The notes: generated by a model not told the origin, from the sequence alone. Numbered from the stretch's first letter, positions 39,246-48,558 are shown. The stretch is DNA of 64,000 bases from Desulfobacteraceae bacterium Eth-SRB1 (GCA_004193555.1 RPGP01000029.1:36093-100092), one strand, 5' to 3'. A program made the numbers and translations.

Positions 39246-40774
39246 TGACGAAAAAAAAGAAAATAGAATTTGGTGATTTCCAAACACCAATTGAACTTAC
39301 CGATAATATATCAAAATTTATTAAAACCATTTTCCCCACACCAAACATTATTATCGAGCCAACATGTGGCTTAGGGAGTTTCGTTAAATCCTGTAAATCT
39401 ATTTGGGGAACAGATTGCTCTTATTATGGGTTCGATGTAAATCCTCAATATATTGAAAAATGTAATACGAACATTAATGACCGAGGTAATTGCCACTTTG
39501 AAGTGGCAAATTTTTTCCAGAAAAACTGGAAGGATCTGTTTCTTACTTACAAAAAATCTAAAGTTTTAGTAGTCGGAAATCCTCCGTGGGTTACGAATGC
39601 GGCTTTGGGTGTTCTCAACAGTAGCAATTTGCCTCAAAAATCTAACTTTCAGGGTTTAGGTGGTTTTGCAGCAAAAACAGGAAAAGCAAATTTCGACATA
39701 GCAGAATGGATGCTAATAAAATTAATTGAAAGCTTAAAGGGATGTAACGCATGCATAGCAATGTTATGTAAAACAGCAACTGCTAGAAAAGTTTTAAAAC
39801 ACTTTTGGATTAATAATAGCCAAATTAATAATAGTTTTATTCATTTAATTGATGCTAAACAGTATTTTAACGTATCTGTTGATGCTTGCTTATTTGTCAC
39901 TTTCGTAAATTCTAAAGATAAATCTAAAGACGCATATATTTATAATGATTTGTCTTTTAGAAATGAAGTAACTCATTTAGGTATATATGCTAATGAATTA
40001 ATAGCAAATATTGATGATTTTGAGAAGTATCGTGATGTAGATGGTATTGATTACTATAAATGGCGTTCTGGAATTAAGCATGATGCTTCTAGGGTAATGG
40101 AGTTAACAAAGGATAATGATAAATTTAAAAACGGTTTCGGAGAATACGTTGAGATAGAGAGTGAATATCTATATCCGCTTTTAAAATCATCAGATCTTGG
40201 CAATAATAGACTTACACCTCGAAAATATGTGATTGTTACTCAAAAGACCGTAGGAGAAAATACTATAGTAATAAAAAAAACTGCACCGAAAACATGGGCA
40301 TATCTGGAACAGTATTCTTCTATTTTGGATAGCAGAAAAAGTATTATTTATAAGAATCGTCCACGATTTTCTGTTTTCGGTATAGGTGATTATAGTTTTA
40401 CTTCATGGAAGGTTGCGATTTCTGGTCTTTATAAAGGGATTCATTTCTGTGCAATTGGGCAGTATGATAAAAAACCGATTATGGTAGATGATACTTGTTA
40501 TTTTATCCCATGTAGTTCAAAAGCTGAAGCAATACTTTTTGCTCAACAACTAAATTCTGAACCTTGCATGAAATTTCTTAAATCTTTAATATTTTTTGAT
40601 GCCAAGAGGCCAATTAATATAGATATTTTAAGAAGGATTGATTTTAAAAAACTTTCTGAAATAAATGAAAAAGAGGATGAAGTTTTAAAATTTTTGACTT
40701 ATGCCCAAGCTCCATTAACTCAACAACTCTCGTTGGTTTTTGAAAAAACGGAAGAATACCGAACAATCGGATGA
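39245..40774 (+). CDS. Cassette 2: N6-adenine DNA methyltransferase (gamma class)
   Basis: Motif I IEPTCGLGSF, motif IV GNPPW. Confidence 0.88.
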   Translation: MTKKKKIEFGDFQTPIELTDNISKFIKTIFPTPNIIIEPTCGLGSFVKSCKSIWGTDCSYYGFDVNPQYIEKCNTNINDRGNCHFEVANFFQKNWKDLFLTYKKSKVLVVGNPPWVTNAALGVLNSSNLPQKSNFQGLGGFAAKTGKANFDIAEWMLIKLIESLKGCNACIAMLCKTATARKVLKHFWINNSQINNSFIHLIDAKQYFNVSVDACLFVTFVNSKDKSKDAYIYNDLSFRNEVTHLGIYANELIANIDDFEKYRDVDGIDYYKWRSGIKHDASRVMELTKDNDKFKNGFGEYVEIESEYLYPLLKSSDLGNNRLTPRKYVIVTQKTVGENTIVIKKTAPKTWAYLEQYSSILDSRKSIIYKNRPRFSVFGIGDYSFTSWKVAISGLYKGIHFCAIGQYDKKPIMVDDTCYFIPCSSKAEAILFAQQLNSEPCMKFLKSLIFFDAKRPINIDILRRIDFKKLSEINEKEDEVLKFLTYAQAPLTQQLSLVFEKTEEYRTIG

Positions 40775-40830
40775 ACTCTGACTGAAAAAGCCTGGCCGTT
40801 TTTTGGTTTCTACAAATTTTGTTGTTTATC
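40758..40830 (+). other. attC site 2, left half (interrupted by IS21)
   Basis: R'' ACCGAAC is the complement of GTTCGGT at the start of cassette 2; L'' GGATGAACTCTGA; ends abruptly at TGTCAA. Confidence 0.85.
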
Positions 40831-40955
40831 TGTCAATGGACAATAATTTTGACCCACTACCGGACAATAAAACTGACCCACCCCCTGCACTTAGTTTAAA
40901 TTGATTTTTTGTTTGAGCCGATAGCTTTCACCCCCCATCATAAAAATATGTGAAC
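40831..40955 (-). mobile_element. IS21-family terminal region (probable right end)
   Basis: TGTCAATGGACAATAATTTTGACCCACTACCGGACAATAAAACTGACCCACC: TG start and tandem transposase-binding repeats. Confidence 0.75.
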
Positions 40956-42295
40956 CAAATGGCATTACCAAAGGCAGCCTGGATTAATAAACCATCACCG
41001 AGATAAAGAGAAGTGATTCGGTGATACACTAAATACTGATGGAGGTGTCTCATTTTCATTGACACATTCCGCATTACCTTTAATGGTTCTTAACCGTCAT
41101 ATTGAAATAATCATCAAGTGCATAATGTGCAAAGATATTTGGCTATCGGACTACGAACGCTTAGTAGCCTCCTTCATCACTTACCGTTAATTCTCCATTA
41201 CTGAGAATACCTGCCTTAAACATCCTTCGGATATATCTTAGGAAGCGTTTATCTTGTATCTTGCTGGACAATTGTTCCATCAGTAGTTCATGGTCAATTG
41301 TTCTAAAATAGTTTGACAAGTCAAGATCAATAACTTTCCTCACTGATTGGCTGTATAAATGTCTTCGAAGTTCTTTTAAAGCATCATGACACCCCAATTT
41401 TGGTCTAAGTCCATATGAGCTATTCCAAAATAAAGGTTCATAGATAGCTTCAAGTATTTTCTGCACTCCTTTCTGGACAATTTTATCTTCAAAATTGCCT
41501 ATTCCCAATGGTCTTGTAAGCACATTTCTTCCTTCTTTTAGAATTAGTATCTCACCAAGAATAAAGGGAATATGCAGGGGACATTGTTTTCAACTTTTTC
41601 AGTAGAGCATCGAGATTCTCCTCCAGATTTTCACCATACTTTTCTTTTGTCATACCATCAATACCAACCGCTGCTTTTCCTTTGAGCGACTGATACCAAT
41701 CCAGCAAATTCTCTTTATTGAAATGATGCATTAATTGATTAAATACCATTTCAGGATTATCTGCTGATAATTTACTTATTATTGCAAATTTTGTTTCCAT
41801 AATTACCGATATTCTGCGCTACTATCGTGTCGCTGCAATATCAATTATAACCTGGGCCTTCCTCCACCGGCGTTACCCGGTTTCAACAGTACTATGAGTC
41901 CTCCCCGACCTATTATTCGTCTCAATTTCCTTGCTTATTAGGCTTTGTAATTGATACTCCATCCATGGAGGAAACAGTAAGGTCTCCACGTTTATAAAAT
42001 AGCTTTGTTTACATGCCACGATCCTCGGGAGGTGCCATAACGTCTACCATTTGGCGTTGAGGATTTATGGTGTTGTTTGCCTTCTGACGCCGCGAGCGAA
42101 ATGAAAGCACCTCAAATGACAAAATTAACGGAACTCAATCGCTTCAACATATGTTTCGGCCCCACCTAAACTCTGCAATGCTGCAGCACAATGGCTTGTT
42201 ACCAGACGCTGCACAAGACTCGATAATCGATGTGCCGGGTCAAAGCACTTTCGATGTATTCACTTTCAGATGCCAGCTGGCACTTCGTGGCGCAC
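40955..42295 (-). repeat. Indel-rich inverted copy of 45754-47100 (group II intron 5' part, RT fragments and IS3 end)
   Basis: Same GTGCGCCACGAAGTG start, same RT peptide (frameshifted), same IS3 junction. Confidence 0.9.
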
Positions 42296-42315
42296 AGCGG
42301 TTTTTTGCGTCGGCT

Positions 42316-43180
42316 TCCGGGTAAAGGTACCGGTTACCCGGCGCCCTCCCCACAGACCCGTACGTGAAGCTTGCCCTCATACGGTTCCTCGATTCAGGCC
42401 CTTTTTACCGAGCCGTCAACCAATCAGGCGACACCCCGATTGGCGCATAACTTTGATGCCCATAGGCAAATCAAATATTATTGTGGACTATTCTGGGTAG
42501 CGGTAATGGGTGCGTTCTGCGCAAGTCTTCGAACAAGACGTTGCCAGTGTGACTGCGGCGGCTTAGCCACCTCCGCCACGCCCTCTCGGGATGTTCGAAC
42601 ACGACTTCCAGAGCCTTGTAATTACCACAAACTCCGTAGTACTGGTAAAAACCCCTTAACTTACTCCAGAGCACCTTGTACTGTTCTTTCATCGCATCAT
42701 GCCGGTTAGCCTTACACCATTGCCACAGCATCTTCATGAAACGGTGTAACCGCTTCCTCGCTGTTTTCTTCTTTATCACCCAATATCCTCTTCGAGACTT
42801 CCCCCAGTAAAATGTGAATCCAAGAAAGTCAAACGTTCCCTTTCCTTTCCGCACTACCTTTGAAGCCGGCTTCCTGAACGGAATTACCCTGGTTTTTTCC
42901 GGATGAAGGGCCAACCCATAGCGATTAAACCGCTTGGGCAATACGTCCATTATCCTTGCAGCGTCTGATTCCAGTTCACAACCTATTACGAAATCATCCG
43001 CCCAACGGATTATGAAGCATTTCCCTTTCATTCGGGGTAAAGCTTTCTTTACGACCCAGTCGTCGAGTACATAGTGGAGAAATATATTGGAAAGCACGGG
43101 CGAAATCACCCCGCCTTGGGGTGTGCCTTTCCCGGGATGAGAAAGAACTCCTTCCTCCATTACACCTGCATTCAACCATT
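42316..43180 (-). mobile_element. Group II intron A, 3' half: RT/maturase C-terminal part (ORF 42471-43175) plus domains V and VI
   Basis: GTPQGG, RWADD, LHPEKT; DV/DVI GGAACCGTATGAGGGCAAGCTTCACGTACGGGTCTGTGGG...TACCCGGA. Confidence 0.9.
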
Positions 43181-43194
43181 TGGACGCGGGCTTA

Positions 43195-44286
43195 GGGGAC
43201 GTTCTTCAGTTCATAAGTTTGTATCATCAATGAGTAAATATTGATGTTCTTTTGCGATTTTTTCACCCCGTTTTACAGACAAACTCACGGCTGGTTCAGA
43301 TAATTTCAGCTTACGTGAAAGTTCCGACATCCTCATTCCCAATTCCCTGACGGCCCAATAGCACAGCAAACTTCTTGCCTGAACTATGTGAGGATATTTT
43401 CCTTTTATCCACAAATCTTTGGCTTCAAGCCCCAATAGATGAGAAACCCGCCGGACAACCTTGTCAAGATCAAACCCCATGGCCTGAAGAGAATATTTTT
43501 TATCCAGTTTGTCTTGAGCAGCTTTAAGGACTGTATTGACAAAATCACCATCACCCAAAATACGCTCATCACCTTTTTGATAAACTCCGGCCCTTCGCAT
43601 TGATTTTGCTTCTGACCATCCACCTATGCTGCGTATTAAACCTCCACCAGTCAGATCAGTTCTTTTTCCGTCAGGAATTCCTTTCTTTACATAAGATCGA
43701 TATCGCCGCCTCGCAACAGAAACCTTTGTATCGAATAAACACAGGACAATCAAGGGGAATAGGGTACATTCTTCACATTGTAAGTTGCTAATATATAGAA
43801 AGAGTGACATAAAAAAATATGCCAAGAAAAGTCAGGATAGATGCATCTGGTGCTCTTCACCACATTATTGCCAGAGGCATTGATAGAAATACAATCTTTC
43901 AGGATGATTTTGACCGAAAGAACTTTATAGACAGTTTGGAAAGATGTCCATGACGCTTGTGCCTGCGATTATATGACATGGCATAACCGGTCAAAAGTCG
44001 TCTCATCACTGTTGCAACAGGAGCAAGACCGGTTCTGAGCAGCAAATGGAAATGATTCGGAATCAGCGCCCAGGCATAGCAGATTGTTTTGCTTTCATTT
44101 AGAATGGCAGGCAGCCTGTCTATAAAGTTCTTTCGGTCAAAATCGTCACCAATTGCCGACATAATCAATGCCTCTGCAAGCGTAGTAATTGAGAGCACCA
44201 GAGCATCTATCCTGGCTTTCCATGGCATATTTTTCTTGTGTCACACTTTCTATATATTAGCAACTTATAATGTGAAGAACGTCCCC
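43195..44286 (-). mobile_element. Y1 (HUH) RAYT-like transposase element with 25-bp terminal inverted repeats; centre disrupted
   Basis: MP.KARIDA..., YAWALIPNHFHLLLRTG, C-terminal HTH; TIRs GGGGACGTTCTTCAnnnnATAAGTT at 43195-43219 and 44262-44286; TA on both flanks. Confidence 0.8.
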
Positions 44287-44288
44287 TA

Positions 44289-44612
44289 TACCCCCCATTG
44301 CTTATACTCAACAGCAATTAAGTATGGTGCTGTAATGATAAAATCTGGACGGATAGTTTCTTCGCCGCAAAAGGTGAGTAGCACGTTCTTAACTCCCCAT
44401 ACGCACCTTCTGCCCCTCAATAAAGTTATATTGCCTTTCAAGGCATCATATATCCAGATTCGGAAAATGTTTCCAATGGTTCCATTTCGAACTTCCGGGT
44501 TTTGGATTTAAATTGCGGGTTGCCGACAATATATTTATGAACCTCCTCAATAAATTGGAATTGGACTTTAGCTGTTTTCTTCGATTACCAAGGCCCCCTC
44601 ACCTATTTTGAG
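44289..44612 (-). pseudogene. Remnant of cassette 3 (possible PD-(D/E)xK nuclease), cut by the RAYT element
   Basis: Follows R' of attC2; frameshifted peptide ending IRPDFIITAPYLIAVEYKQW. Confidence 0.35.
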
Positions 44613-44687
44613 CTATAACAACAAGGATAACCTGATGATGAAAGCAAAACAAATATGGCTACAAAAGCAAAGAAAGATTAGGTAAGC
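44613..44687 (-). other. attC site 2, right half (displaced and inverted)
   Basis: Minus strand TCAGGTTATCC-TTGTT-GTTATAG; TCAGGTTATCC pairs with GGAT[G]AAC[T]CTGA of the left half; abuts the IS21 left end. Confidence 0.75.
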
Positions 44688-45753
44688 TGTTAGCGGTCCG
44701 TTTATAATGACGGTAGCCGAACAATAAAACTGACCCACCCTCAAACAGTGCTTAACAGGCAGCATAATAAAAAAATTATTTACCATAATTAATATGTTGT
44801 AGGAGGTTCCTCATTATTTTCAATAAGGAGGAACAGATGTGAAGAAGATTGGAATAGCCAGGTTTACATAAAGATTAAATTGCTCTATGATGATGATGGC
44901 CAGCGGGTACATTTTAGCTCCGTGCCATTGCTATCAGACTTCAGGTATCGAGGAATACAATCGAAGATACCTGCAAATGAATGAGGAAGAGATCTGCAAG
45001 ATATGTAAAGCAAGAGACGGACAGAACTCGGTAAAATATAAAATTATATTATCTCCTGCTTGAAAATATGAAGAAATTATCTGCTGTTAAAATCAAACTT
45101 AAAATAGGGATAGTTTAACTGTCTCTAACGGGTCACCAGCCAAGGCGCTACGTAAACGGAATCAGGCAAACTATAGCCATTGAGAGCAGAAACGCTATTA
45201 TGAACCTGTTATGGATATGGTTCCAGGGAGTTCAGTGCTTGGTGAATCACGGAGAAATCAAGGAGGAATGTTCCTGTTGGCGATAAATTTATCACTATCC
45301 TATTTTGTAGTATTTGTTCTCTCTTTTTACGACAAATGCTTGTATGTTGCGGCCTCTAATCGGCCAATTAATACAGAAGGCATGTTTATCAAGGATGCAT
45401 GATGAGGGCCTTTTAGATACTTTGACGGTGTTTGTGAAATTATTATTCTATGACCAGACTAAGCTTGTTACAATCACCAGAAGGAGTTCAGAGGAGGAGT
45501 CTGGTTCAATGAAAGTTTTTTATCAATATGCTTCTGCGGCCCTTGGATATATACGAGGTATGTGAAGGATATTATGACCGAAACAAGAACCCAAGGGTCG
45601 AGTCCGGTGTAAAATATGTAAGAACGATTTTTTTTCTATGGCGACACATTTGATTCTTTTTGATCAGCTCAAGCACGAATCTTTGCAGTTAGATTGGATA
45701 CGGTTGCAAACAAAAAGCGTATTCACGGCTTACGAAAAAGCCGGAAGAACTTT
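44688..45753 (+). mobile_element. istA: IS21 left end and frameshifted 5' part of istA
   Basis: TGTTAGCGG...ACAATAAAACTGACCCACC; peptides RAIAIRLQVSRNTI, RYYEPVMDMVPG, YDQTKLV, ESGVKYV across frameshifts. Confidence 0.75.
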
Positions 45754-46988
45754 GTGCGCCACGAAGTGTAAAATAACTGGCATCTGAAAGTGAATGCATC
45801 GAAAGTGCAACCCAGCACATCGATTATCGAGTCTTGTGCGGTGTCTGGTAACAGGCACTGTAAAGCGTAGACAGAGAGTTTGTAGGCCGGAAACATATGT
45901 TGAAGTGATTGAGTTCCGTTAATTTTGTCATTTGAGGATGGCTGATGGCTTCGCGGCGTCAGAAAGCAATATCATAGCCGACACTAAATGGGGAGGAAGC
46001 TATGACACCTTCGGGATCGTAGAGCCTGGCATGCAAACAAAGCTATTTTATAAACGTGGGAGACCCTATTGTTTCTCCAAGGATAGAGTATCAATTACAA
46101 GCCTAATAAGCGAGAAAGTTGAGACGAATAATAGGGAGTCAGAGAACTCATAGTACTGAAGAAGCCGGGTAATGCCGGTGGAGGGAAGGGGTTCAGGTTA
46201 AATCGCTATTGTGAAGGACACATAATAGATAACACAGAATATCGGTGATTATGAGAACAAAATTTGCAATAATAAATAGATTATCAGCAGAAAATCCTGA
46301 AATGGTGTTTAATCAATTGATGCACCACTTCAATAAAGAAAATTTGCTGAATTGGTATCAATCGCTCAAAAGAAAAGCAGCGGTCGGTAGTGATGGTATG
46401 ACAAAAGAAGAATATGGTAAAAATCTTGAAGAGAATCTTGATACTCTACTGGAAAAGCTGAAGACAATGTCCTATGTTCCCGGTTCTGTAAAGCAAATAT
46501 TAATTCCTAAAGAAGGAAGTAAAGGAGCTACAAGACCATTGGGAATAGGCAATTTTGAAGATAAAATTGTCCAGAAAGGAGTGCAGAAAATACTTGAAGC
46601 TATCTATGAACCTTTATTTTGGAATAGCTCATATGGATTTAGACCAAAATTGGGGTGTCATGATGCTTTAAAAGAACTTCGAAGACATTTATACAGCCAA
46701 TCAGTGAGGAAAGTTATTGATCTTGACTTGTCAAACTATTTTGGAACAATTGACCATGAACTACTGATGGAACAATTGTCAAACAAGATACAAGATAAAC
46801 GCTTCCTAAGATATATCCGAAGGATGTTTAAGGCAGGTATTCTCAGTAATGGAGAATTAACGGTAAGTGATGAAGGAGTGCCACAAGGTAGTGTCTGTAG
46901 TCCGATATTAGCCAATATCTTTGCACATTATGCACTTGATGATTGGTTTAATATGACGGTTAAGAACCATTGTAAAGGTAATGCGGAA
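45754..46988 (+). mobile_element. Group II intron B, 5' half with RT N-terminal part (ORF from about 46251), truncated by IS3
   Basis: GTGCG 5' end; AAVGSDG, RPLGI, SYGFRP, DLSNYF, GVPQGS; stops before the YADD motif. Confidence 0.9.
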
Positions 46989-48558
46989 TGTGTCAATGAA
47001 AATGAGACACCTCCATCAGTAATTTAGTGTATCACCGAATCACTTTCATTCGGTGATGGTTTATTAATCCAGGCTGCCTTTGGTAATGCCATCGGTTTTG
47101 GAACCTTTCCCTTGAACCGGTTTGGATGTTTTTCAAAGGCTATTTTCAATACCTTTTCACGCTCTTTGATAATTTGTTCAGCCCGTCCATAATGTACATC
47201 TTCCGGTGTGACAAAACCAATACCTGAATGGTAGTGTCCTGTATTGTACCAAAGGAAGAAGCCATGACAAAAGAATCTGGCATCTTCAATAGCGCCAAAC
47301 CGCTCTGGAAACTCAGGCCGATATTTCATGGTCTTGAACTGCGATTCTGAATAAGGGTTGTCATTGCTGACGTAGGGTCTTGAATGACTTTTGGTAATCC
47401 CTAAATCAGCCAATAACAATGCCTTAAAATAATAAAGATGTTAATTGGCCTCTTGGCATCAAAAAATATTAAAATTTAAGAAATTTCATGCAAGGTTCAA
47501 ATTTAGTTGTTGAGGCAAAGTATTGCTTCAGCTTTTTGAACTACATGGGATAAAATAACAAGTATCATCTACCACTTAATCGGTTTTTATCATACTGCCC
47601 AATTGCACAAAATAAGATCGCTTTATAAAGACCAGAAATCGCAACCTTCCATGAAGTAAAACTATAATCCACCTATACCGAAACAGAAATCGTGGACCGA
47701 TTCTTATAAAAATAATACTTTTTCTGCTATCAAATAAGAATACTGTTCCAGATATGCCCATGTTTTAGTTTTTTTTTATTACTATAGTATTTTCTCCTAC
47801 AGTCTTTTTGAGTAGCTGTCATATTTTCGAGGGTGTAAGTCTATTATTGCCAAGATCTGATGATTTTAAAGCGGATATAGATATTCACTCTCTATCTCTT
47901 GTATTCTCGAAACCGTTTTTAAATTTATCATTATCCTTGTTAACTCCATTACCCGCAGAAGCATCGTAGCAATTTCCAGAACGCCATTTATAGTAATCAA
48001 TACCATCTACATCCGCGATACTTCTCCAAAATCATCAATATTTGCTATTAATTCATTAGCATATATACCTAAATGAGTTACTTCATTTCTAAAGACAAAT
48101 CATTATAAATATATGCGTCTTTAGATTTATCTTTAAATTTACAGAAGTGACAAATAAAGCAAGCATCAACAGATACGTTACAATACTGTTTAGCATCAGT
48201 GCCGTGAATAAAACTATTATTAATTTGTGTAATCAAAGTGTTTTAAAACTTTCACAGCAGTTGCTGTACATAAAGCATTGCTATGCATGCGTTACATCCT
48301 TTAAACTTTTCAATTAATTTTATTGGCATCCATTCTGCTATGTCGAAATTTGCTTTTCTGTTTGCTGCAAAACCTACACCTAAACACAAAGAGAGTTAGA
48401 TTTTGAGGGCAAATTGCTGTTGAGAACACACACCCAATTTGTTGCTTTGCTAACATGGGTTGCTATTGATGCATTCTTTAACATTTTATTTCTCCTTCCC
48501 GCCCTCTATAATATACACTAAATTATAGGTTGGGAAGTGTCTCACTTATATTGGCACA
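46989..48558 (-). mobile_element. IS3-family element, 1570 bp, interior overwritten
   Basis: 26-bp IRs TGTGTCAATGAAAATGAGACACCTCC (46989) and TGTGCCAATATAAGTGAGACACTTCC (48558); transposase C-terminus at 47024-47419 (SNDNPYSES, WYN...H); RBS and ATG at 48484. Confidence 0.85.
47425..48437 (-). repeat. Indel-rich inverted copy of the MTase gene segment 39605-40630
   Basis: Colinear reverse-complement match across about 1 kb with many small indels. Confidence 0.92.

Follow-up and report, generated by a model that had tools for sequence, protein, structure and literature searches.

The window analysed here is a stretch of 64,000 nucleotides of Desulfobacteraceae bacterium Eth-SRB1 (C29:36093-100092), taken from a genome assembly of 3.34 Mb with 42% G+C in 52 contigs. 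Within it, two 25-bp terminal inverted repeats (TIRs) enclose the remains of a gene on the minus strand. The left repeat (43195-43219, minus strand), which is the 3' TIR, and the reverse complement of 44262-44286 agree in 22 of 25 bases. When 43000-44500 was Markov-shuffled 100 times, no inverted 25-mer with similar spacing had more than 18 identical positions, and none of the shuffles reached 22. The stop codon TGA (43213-43211) sits in the left repeat, which is conserved in two intact 338-aa orthologues, L002 (G013:C169) and L003 (G005:C14), that carry the window's own TIR sequences. On the other side, the 5' leader and the 5' TIR occupy 44229-44289 (minus strand); the TIR itself is 44262-44286, and the conserved end ATAGGGGACG extends to 44289. 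TA adjoins both repeats. An earlier note on this DNA had described 25-bp TIRs and a stop codon inside the TIR, and both descriptions hold. The element has no IS200-type hairpins: single-stranded DNA folds of both element ends, on both strands, gave no hairpin better than shuffled sequences (z from -0.02 to -0.69). One candidate DnaA box in the 5' TIR, TTCTTCACA, fits TTWTNCACA at 8 of 9 positions; it was taken as chance because it is missing from the 3' TIR and from the other subfamilies.

The gene between the repeats, hereafter copy B, is collinear with L002 and L003 in a minus-strand alignment apart from three places. Its N-terminal coding remnant (43935-44228, minus strand), defined by a three-way DNA alignment with L002 and L003, covers codons 1 to about 96, contains the His-Phe-His (HUH) motif at 44054-44046, and matches NCBIfam REP_Tyr_transpos weakly. 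The C-terminal coding remnant (43211-43740, minus strand) covers codons ~171-338 with a DnaA domain-IV-like helix-turn-helix (HTH), aligns to the orthologues without gaps at 88-90% amino acid identity, and has a weak match to Pfam Bac_DnaA_C. Two minus-strand ORFs are readable, one of 109 aa (44228-43899) that contains NHFHLL and one of 204 aa (43825-43211) with the DnaA_C-like HTH at its end. Codons ~9-27 are garbled by 1-nt and 2-nt deletions and clustered substitutions, with ALVLSITTLAEAL where GALHHII-RG is expected, and one further nucleotide is missing at the HLFQ codons. Codons ~97-170 (about 75 codons), including FQNRYKS/NRYKS and the catalytic YIHLNP (Y---NP), are absent. An inverted fragment replaces them, and copy B is therefore a pseudogene from which no active enzyme is possible. 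The HFH motif and the C-terminal HTH reported previously are thus present, but the repeats do not enclose exactly one gene, as had been stated, since what they enclose is a pseudogene in three pieces. Nor is the window copy an autonomous element, because its catalytic tyrosine region has been deleted.

The inverted fragment (43759-43934, plus strand) is the 5' portion of a second element of the same family. Its 5' TIR (43759-43786) is followed by a leader and then, from an ATG at 43819, by 38 codons that read MPRKVRIDASGALHHIIARGIDRNTIFQDDFDRKNFID; the N-terminus is intact and begins MPRKVRIDASGALHHIIARG. As a result, the copy contains a larger internal inverted repeat, in which 43754-43934 is 81.5% identical to 44294-44116. 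A site-pattern test characterized the fragment as a genuine sister paralogue of the copy B 5' region, and the same test ruled out that this region is a noisy mirror of the fragment. The fragment is 99% identical to C1:1099086-1099280, a sequence that adjoins an unrelated antitoxin-like gene. Between the fragment and the C-terminal remnant lies the junction stretch ACAGGACAATCAAGGGGA (43741-43758, plus strand), the origin of which is ambiguous; its left part doubles as copy B codons TGTCCTGT, and the whole resembles the flank of the C1 fragment.

Intact members of the family were classified by sequence profiles and by fold. They match Pfam Y1_Tnp with 38.8-39.3 bits against a cut-off of 23, and they contain NHFH and YIHLNP, the latter fitting the class-2 motif Y---NP. 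The Pfam Bac_DnaA_C match of 17-18 bits lies under the cut-off; a profile of the family matches DnaA (2Z4R, residues 344-413) with E=9e-5, and a single-sequence PDB search resulted in no match. An AlphaFold model of one homologue, computed with 45 sequences (pLDDT 82.6), had as its best solved fold match TnpA-REP with its REP hairpin (4ER8; E=4e-6, TM 0.70), with the ISDra2, IS200 and IS608 transposases behind. The tail of the model matches DnaA domain IV (1J1V/3PVP) with a TM of 0.69-0.70 and an rmsd of 2.0.

An organization of this kind was named TIRtron, with its gene product TIRYT, by Di Nocera, De Gregorio and Rocco (2013, BMC Genomics 14:522, PMC3733652), who described a RAYT-like gene, TIRs that overlap the gene 3' end and the sequence GGGGWSAS in some TIRs. 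In some genomes, the TIRtron TIRs belong in addition to dispersed repeat families of moderate abundance, which occur singly or in clusters (PMC3733652). Quentin et al. (2018, PMC6006769) equated TIRYT with TnpA-Y1 subclass 2.1, the 2.1.2 branch of which has a C-terminal HTH resembling Bac_DnaA_C, HTH_23 or HTH_28, and mapped RAYT Group 1 of Bertels et al. (2017, PMC5581495) onto subclass 2.1. Our search of the literature found no experimental work on transposition, DNA binding or cleavage by TIRtron/TIRYT members. We read the window element, with a probability of about 0.88, as a dead TIRtron copy, that is, a one-gene element of ~1.1 kb whose TIRYT is a RAYT-like HUH/Y1 nuclease with a DnaA domain-IV-like tail. 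Judged by motifs and domain layout, the protein corresponds to TnpA-Y1 subclass 2.1.2. The element belongs, as a decayed Desulfobacterales representative, to the published TIRtron class; it does not found a new one. Of the earlier proposal of a poorly described class of TIR-bounded Y1 element, the RAYT-like Y1/HUH protein and the non-palindromic TIRs stand, whereas the novelty does not, as the element matches a described group with the same ends (TIRtron/TIRYT, subclass 2.1).

The inverted repeats are a trait of the whole family. The source genome contains three intact paralogues, C40:1274498-1273494 (336 aa), C1:622536-621571 (332 aa) and C40:216567-215410. Two of these have flanking inverted repeats of 20-30 nt that start GGGACG, with the stop codon in or beside the 3' repeat; at C40:216567-215410, no clear flanking repeat was found. 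A scan with one genome per species yielded at least 586 relatives, nearly all from MAGs of Desulfobacterales and other Thermodesulfobacteriota. Fifty-nine intact homologues from named Desulfobacterota MAGs had enough flank for a repeat scan, and 50 of them showed a cognate flanking inverted repeat with a score of at least 12 (median 21). Shuffling the flanks left 1 of 59 with such a repeat, and taking the 3' flank from another locus left 5 of 59. Homologues thus keep cognate TIRs, the lack of which the earlier note had named as refuting its reading.

In the family as a whole, the gene lies between cognate, non-palindromic inverted repeats of ~25-30 nt. The 5' repeat starts ~57-62 nt before the ATG, and the 3' repeat, which overlaps the stop codon or closely follows it, ends ~25 nt after the stop. 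Anchored on GGGAC, the consensus at both ends is ATAGGGGACGCCCTTAA.ATTTTAAGTT. Each repeat has a conserved GGG(G)ACG box and, about one helical turn inward, an AT-rich TTTTAAGTT-like box, with subfamily-specific bases between the two. The family consensus of the first box is GGGGACGC, and its fit to the published GGGGWSAS is 6 of 8 positions. In other subfamilies, the TIR often reaches 3-16 nt past the box on its outer side. Runs of G beyond the box are common, yet they sometimes lie within the TIR itself.

The boundaries 43195-44286 given previously were not upheld. The element probably extends from ~43183 to ~44289, with termini uncertain by ~10 nt. On the 5' side, independent ends of the window subfamily from several genomes start at the equivalent of 44289-44290, and 8 of 11 independent 5' ends read ATA followed by GGGGAC; the TA on this side therefore belongs to the element. 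Several 5' ends are preceded by (R)ACA, which was considered as a target site and rejected, as the 11 independent ends have no universal flank. The bases next to the 3' TIR are TA in the window copy and in most solo ends, CA in L002 and TG in L003. Readable ends come from the pair C40:1273463-1274559 and C29:271203-272304, copies from another subfamily that are 99% identical over 1097 bp, lie in unrelated contexts and have sharp ends. Their identity begins ATTGGGGACG and stops at CCCCAA[G/C]TTGCCC, 7-9 nt outside the 3' TIR; in G028, 6 nt are shared past the 3' TIR. Because the 99% pair shares sequence beyond its 3' TIR, the 12 nt at 43183-43194 (GACGCGGGCTTA on the plus strand; the element runs on the minus strand), located between the intron breakpoint described below and the repeat, are by analogy probably a 3'-terminal extension of the element.

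No direct repeat was found at the flanks of this single pair, which are TTTTGACG/TCAGGG and AAGGGGGA/CAAAAA. Taken together, the 5' TA inside the conserved end, the TA, CA or TG in the 3' flanks of the orthologous ends and the 99% pair without a duplication lead us to conclude that, on comparison of these sequences, the TA is part of the conserved ends and not a target duplication. The TA flanks that the earlier note had pointed out do lie beside both repeats in the window, but they are not a duplication, as the CA and TG flanks of L002 and L003 indicate, and the comparison with IS630/Tc1 that was built on them therefore fails, the 99% pair showing no duplication either. A clean empty site was sought for the family copies and none was found. 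In the same-genus genome G001, the tRNA that flanks the C40 copy was found, but rearrangement has altered the locus, which hence is not a clean empty site.

The left flank of the window copy (42314-43182, minus strand) is the 3' part of a group II intron with the reverse transcriptase C-terminus, the maturase and domain V (Pfam RVT_1 and GIIM; Rfam Intron_gpII, domain V, at 42315-42389). Homology to the intron at C1:428373-427551 (88% identical) ends at 43182, and the C1 copy continues past the breakpoint 43182/43183. The interior of an intron on the left, claimed previously, was therefore recovered, and the statement that the two sides are unrelated is correct for the intron side. The right flank (44290-44613) had no homologue in the source genome or in 25 genomes with the family, so that the cassette remnant which the earlier note had placed on this side found no support. 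An adjacent deletion, which the earlier note had suggested, is one possible cause of the unrelated flanks. The missing half of the truncated intron was sought beside another TIRtron end and was not found there. The 3' end of the window copy thus adjoins a truncated group II intron amid many mobile-element remains.

The surroundings of the element are also organized symmetrically. A pseudo-palindrome of 8.8 kb occupies 39606-48432, with its axis near 44,025 and the inverted TIRtron pair innermost. It consists of three inverted block pairs on one axis, 39606-40620/48432-47438, 40959-42296/47092-45753 and 43754-43934/44294-44116.

How the inverted fragment came to lie inside copy B was considered under three explanations. 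The first, which we hold to be plausible although somewhat short of an even chance, is that a sister TIRtron inserted at copy B codon 170/171 in the opposite orientation and that one deletion of ~1.1 kb took the remainder of the insert together with codons 97-170. The intact 5' end with which the fragment starts and the exact resumption of copy B at the junction both agree with this history, as does the evidence that the two are distinct sister lineages, copy B retaining the ancestral base at 5 of the 16 sites where the fragment differs from both orthologues. TIRtron debris is stacked or nested elsewhere too, at C29:16768-16850, at C1:251921-251959 and downstream of L002. However, the fragment and its 99% identical twin on C1 share 10-19 nt outside the 5' end and end within 5 nt of the same inner position, which would not be expected from two independent histories of insertion plus deletion. 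The nested insertion also leaves unaccounted for that the inner pair is centred within 1 nt of the larger axis.

The second explanation is a larger palindromic rearrangement (fold-back, template switch or recombination between inverted copies) that made 39606-48432 as a whole, with the TIRtron 5' regions as its centre or seed; we regard it as possible but on the unlikely side. The coordinate sums of the three inverted blocks fall within 88038-88058, the intron is truncated at the identical point in both arms, and other large diverged inverted repeats are present in the source genome. On the other hand, the spacers between the blocks are unrelated although nearly equal in length (1457 vs 1458 nt and 338 vs 345 nt); the paired spacers showed no residual identity, and a simple fold-back copy would not yield such a structure. 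The arms also differ in age, with identities of 81.5%, 85.7% and 89.5%, and one stretch of 331 nt is a very recent insertion that is 100% identical to two other loci.

A biological account of spacers that are equally long but unrelated is difficult to give, and this is one reason to consider a third explanation, namely that errors of assembly or consensus in a long-read metagenome assembly produced the internal structure or some of the pseudo-palindrome. The paired arms are also rich in indels by BLAST (4.5-6 gap columns per 100 nt), as are several other inverted repeats. Global alignment, however, gives just 1 gap event per 4-8 substitutions, and the intron arms are mosaic, with 300 nt at 98-99% identity amid stretches of ~85%, which resembles gene conversion rather than read error. 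The C-terminal half of copy B aligns to the orthologues without gaps, and its 5' region is a genuine sister, not a noisy mirror, of the fragment, which makes a pure artefact unlikely. We consider this explanation improbable.

Beyond the window, pieces of the element are dispersed as solo 3' ends. The 75-nt 3'-end module (43193-43267, minus strand in the window) consists of the last 16 codons, the 3' TIR and TA, and also occurs as a solo dispersed repeat. The matches listed for this module number ~70, from at least 17 related genomes, and in ~45 the start differs by no more than 2 nt from a shared inner boundary. The source genome has ~15 solo 3' ends. Further classes of solo 3' ends begin 40, 115 and 138 nt from the end, and 3' ends are commoner than 5' ends by ~4:1. 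Conservation of its first codons (G-E-K-I-A-K-E) in distant subfamilies shows that the 75-nt module is gene-derived. The possibility that the solo units are MITEs with a further TIR was rejected, since none of 7 copies has a 5' TIR within 700 nt upstream. Several copies of the module stand in conserved upstream contexts across genera.

The 3' ends of near-identical copies are also mosaic. In the C40/C29 pair of the source genome, 8 of the 11 substitutions fall in the last 45 nt; in the pair from G028, the last 321 nt contain 15 of the 16 differences, and the 7.4 kb that follow are free of any. Head-to-tail stacks of 3' ends from different subfamilies also occur, with tips that are partly repeated. 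The solo 3' units of 40-140 nt with sharp inner boundaries and a ~4:1 excess, the differences crowded at the 3' side and the head-to-tail stacks suggest a reading that we hold with considerable doubt, namely that the 3'-end modules of TIRtrons are sites where new copies get installed or exchanged and not passive debris. If true, this would imply one-ended or homology-assisted spread for a Y1 transposon, and it might explain the head-to-head TIRtron ends at the centre of the palindrome.

The family was found in 32 of 41 related genomes, with 7 matches in the source genome and up to 13 in relatives. It includes near-identical pairs, many pseudogenes, many solo ends and internal-deletion derivatives, such as a 123-nt MITE-like element with both TIRs in G009. 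These sequence comparisons speak for transposon-like movement and decay of the family. In the mechanism that we propose for intact members, the HTH tail would anchor the protein on the subfamily-specific part of the repeat, and the HUH/Y1 domain would nick and rejoin single-stranded DNA near the conserved box, as suggested by the fold and the absent duplication, so that the element would move without target duplication, like IS200/IS605 and REP/RAYT. Cleavage or recognition probably takes place at the conserved box, and the HTH probably binds the variable and AT-rich part, which would make each protein specific to its own ends. The two inverted ends could pair in single-stranded DNA, uniting both cleavage sites. 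The window copy is immobile by itself; it has kept both ends, but its N-terminus is garbled, its catalytic region is gone and the first 176 nt of a sister element lie inverted inside it.

As an alternative to a decaying transposon, the family could be a RAYT-type host gene that has been domesticated, with a cellular role for its flanking repeats and dispersed 3' modules of the sort proposed for REP/RAYT. The 75-nt module is 80-90% identical at apparently orthologous loci across genera, and most RAYT groups behave as host genes (Bertels et al. 2017, PMC5581495); the same study, however, found Group 1 to be the most IS-like among the true RAYT groups. The multiple matches per genome given above, the many pseudogenes and deletion derivatives, and the near-identical pairs in unrelated contexts also speak against domestication, which we therefore judge to be unlikely.

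Under the preferred reading of a dead TIRtron copy, the window element shares with the described TIRtron/TIRYT a RAYT-like tyrosine transposase gene, long non-REP TIRs that overlap the gene 3' end, a G-rich GGGG-box in the TIR, and TIRs that in some genomes are found among dispersed repeat families. It differs in the box, which in the window TIR is GGGGACGT and matches GGGGWSAS at 6 of 8 positions only, in a Desulfobacterales host lineage where copies are unusually numerous (up to 13 per genome), and in being a rearranged pseudogene. With subclass 2.1.2 and RAYT Group 1, the family has in common the HuH and Y---NP motifs, a protein of ~335 aa, the Bac_DnaA_C-like C-terminus and the lack of REP-like hairpins by the gene. 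The surveys of subclass 2.1 and Group 1 report low copy number and low intragenome identity (PMC6006769, PMC5581495), whereas 99% pairs and many fragments occur here.

The REPtron (E. coli TnpA-REP/RAYT, 4ER8) provides the best fold match of the catalytic domain; it too has a gene bracketed by inverted copies of the presumed substrate, and gene-less copies of its end sequence dispersed in the genome. The repeats of the window family, however, are not palindromic hairpins and lack the GTAG tag, the protein contains a DnaA-type HTH in addition, and the family is multicopy and decaying (7 matches here, up to 13 in relatives), while a REPtron typically has about one gene per genome. IS200/IS605 elements (IS608, ISDra2) share the HUH/Y1 fold and, in the one readable pair, the absence of target duplication. 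They differ from the window family in their ends, which are same-strand subterminal hairpins instead of inverted repeats, and in their tyrosine motif, Y---Q instead of Y---NP; the window-family protein is more than twice as long. Only the short TIRs and, in the window copy alone, the TA by both ends recall IS630/Tc1-mariner, since there is no DDE transposase, the only gene is Y1/HUH, and the TA is not a duplication. A new TIR-bounded Y1 IS class with TA target duplication, to which the TA next to both repeats in the window copy might point, is thus hardly credible, as the layout is already published, orthologues lack TA in the 3' flank, and the 99% pair has no duplication.

The window element therefore opens no new class but extends the TIRtron family of the 2013 description by one decayed Desulfobacterales member. 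Its value is modest and concerns researchers of HUH transposases. Cognate TIRs with a GGGGACG subterminal box and a second, AT-rich box have been established as a family trait in 59 homologues with controls, and ends that can be read, free of target duplication, are now available from one pair of recent copies. The intact genes and the 123-nt two-ended derivative are possible substrates for a first biochemistry of TIRYT. Finally, leads to how TIRtrons move come from 3' modules that are dispersed one-sidedly and from 3' ends that are mosaic.

The 75-nt module that forms the 3' end of the window's TIRtron subfamily (window 43193-43267), TIRtrons being elements of about 1.1 kb with one RAYT-like HUH/Y1 transposase gene between terminal inverted repeats (TIRs), was found dispersed as a solo repeat, with copies in at least 17 related genomes. 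Examples in the source assembly lie at C40:313555-313627, C40:41578-41653, C29:15269-15344, and C1:302768-302841, and loci L033-L052 are further sites of the module. The solo module carries a single TIR only, and its inner boundary is single and sharp. At least three different conserved contexts occur upstream of it, some of which are apparently orthologous across genera.

Stacked TIRtron ends were present outside the window, at C29:16768-16850 and C1:251921-251970 of the source genome. The 3' TIR of another subfamily, that of the intact paralogue C1:622536-621571, runs straight into a 40-nt 3' module that belongs to the window's subfamily; in the C29 stack, three CCCATAKATTCC repeats come next. 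Mosaic 3' ends were also observed in near-identical TIRtron copies, in which the last 45-321 nt hold almost all the differences. The near-identical pairs are C40:1273463-1274559 versus C29:271203-272304 in the source genome, and L090/L091, the two ends of contig C21 in the related genome G028. In G028, an inverted-orientation duplication of at least 7.76 kb stops exactly at the TIRtron 3' terminus at both contig ends.

The decayed TIRtron of the window lies within an 8.8-kb pseudo-palindrome (window 39606-48432), whose three inverted blocks show 81-90% identity and have, near 44,025, a single common axis. Between the blocks lie unrelated spacers of equal length (1457 versus 1458 nt and 338 versus 345 nt). 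The group II introns in the arms are 85.7% identical overall, and a 300-nt tract at 98-99% (window 41200-41500 versus 46547-46847) within this pair suggests recent gene conversion between the arms. The right arm also contains a very recent insertion, a 331-nt element (47093-47423) with 100% identity to C40:157399-157729 and C40:802496-802826.

To the right of the TIRtron, a repeat of about 1065 nt (44688-45752) has at least six copies across the genome that have diverged to 74-84% identity, and its exact end point is the start of the group II intron at 45753. A dispersed sequence of about 60 nt (44614-44679), for which folding gave no hairpin (z -0.28 and 0.94), has 82-88% identical copies at C40:1008913-1008967 and in 10 or more related genomes. 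Elsewhere in the source genome, large inverted repeats of 2.7-6.3 kb (C1:418462-424604/438581-432443 and C40:869604-872239/885240-882557), with about 91% identity and numerous small indels, represent duplications in decay or else places where the assembly is weak.

A MITE-like TIRtron derivative of about 123 nt was located at L064 in the related genome G009 (C10:2400-2850). Its 5' TIR, leader, and four codons are fused without a gap to the final 48 nt, which include the 3' TIR, and this derivative could represent a minimal substrate.
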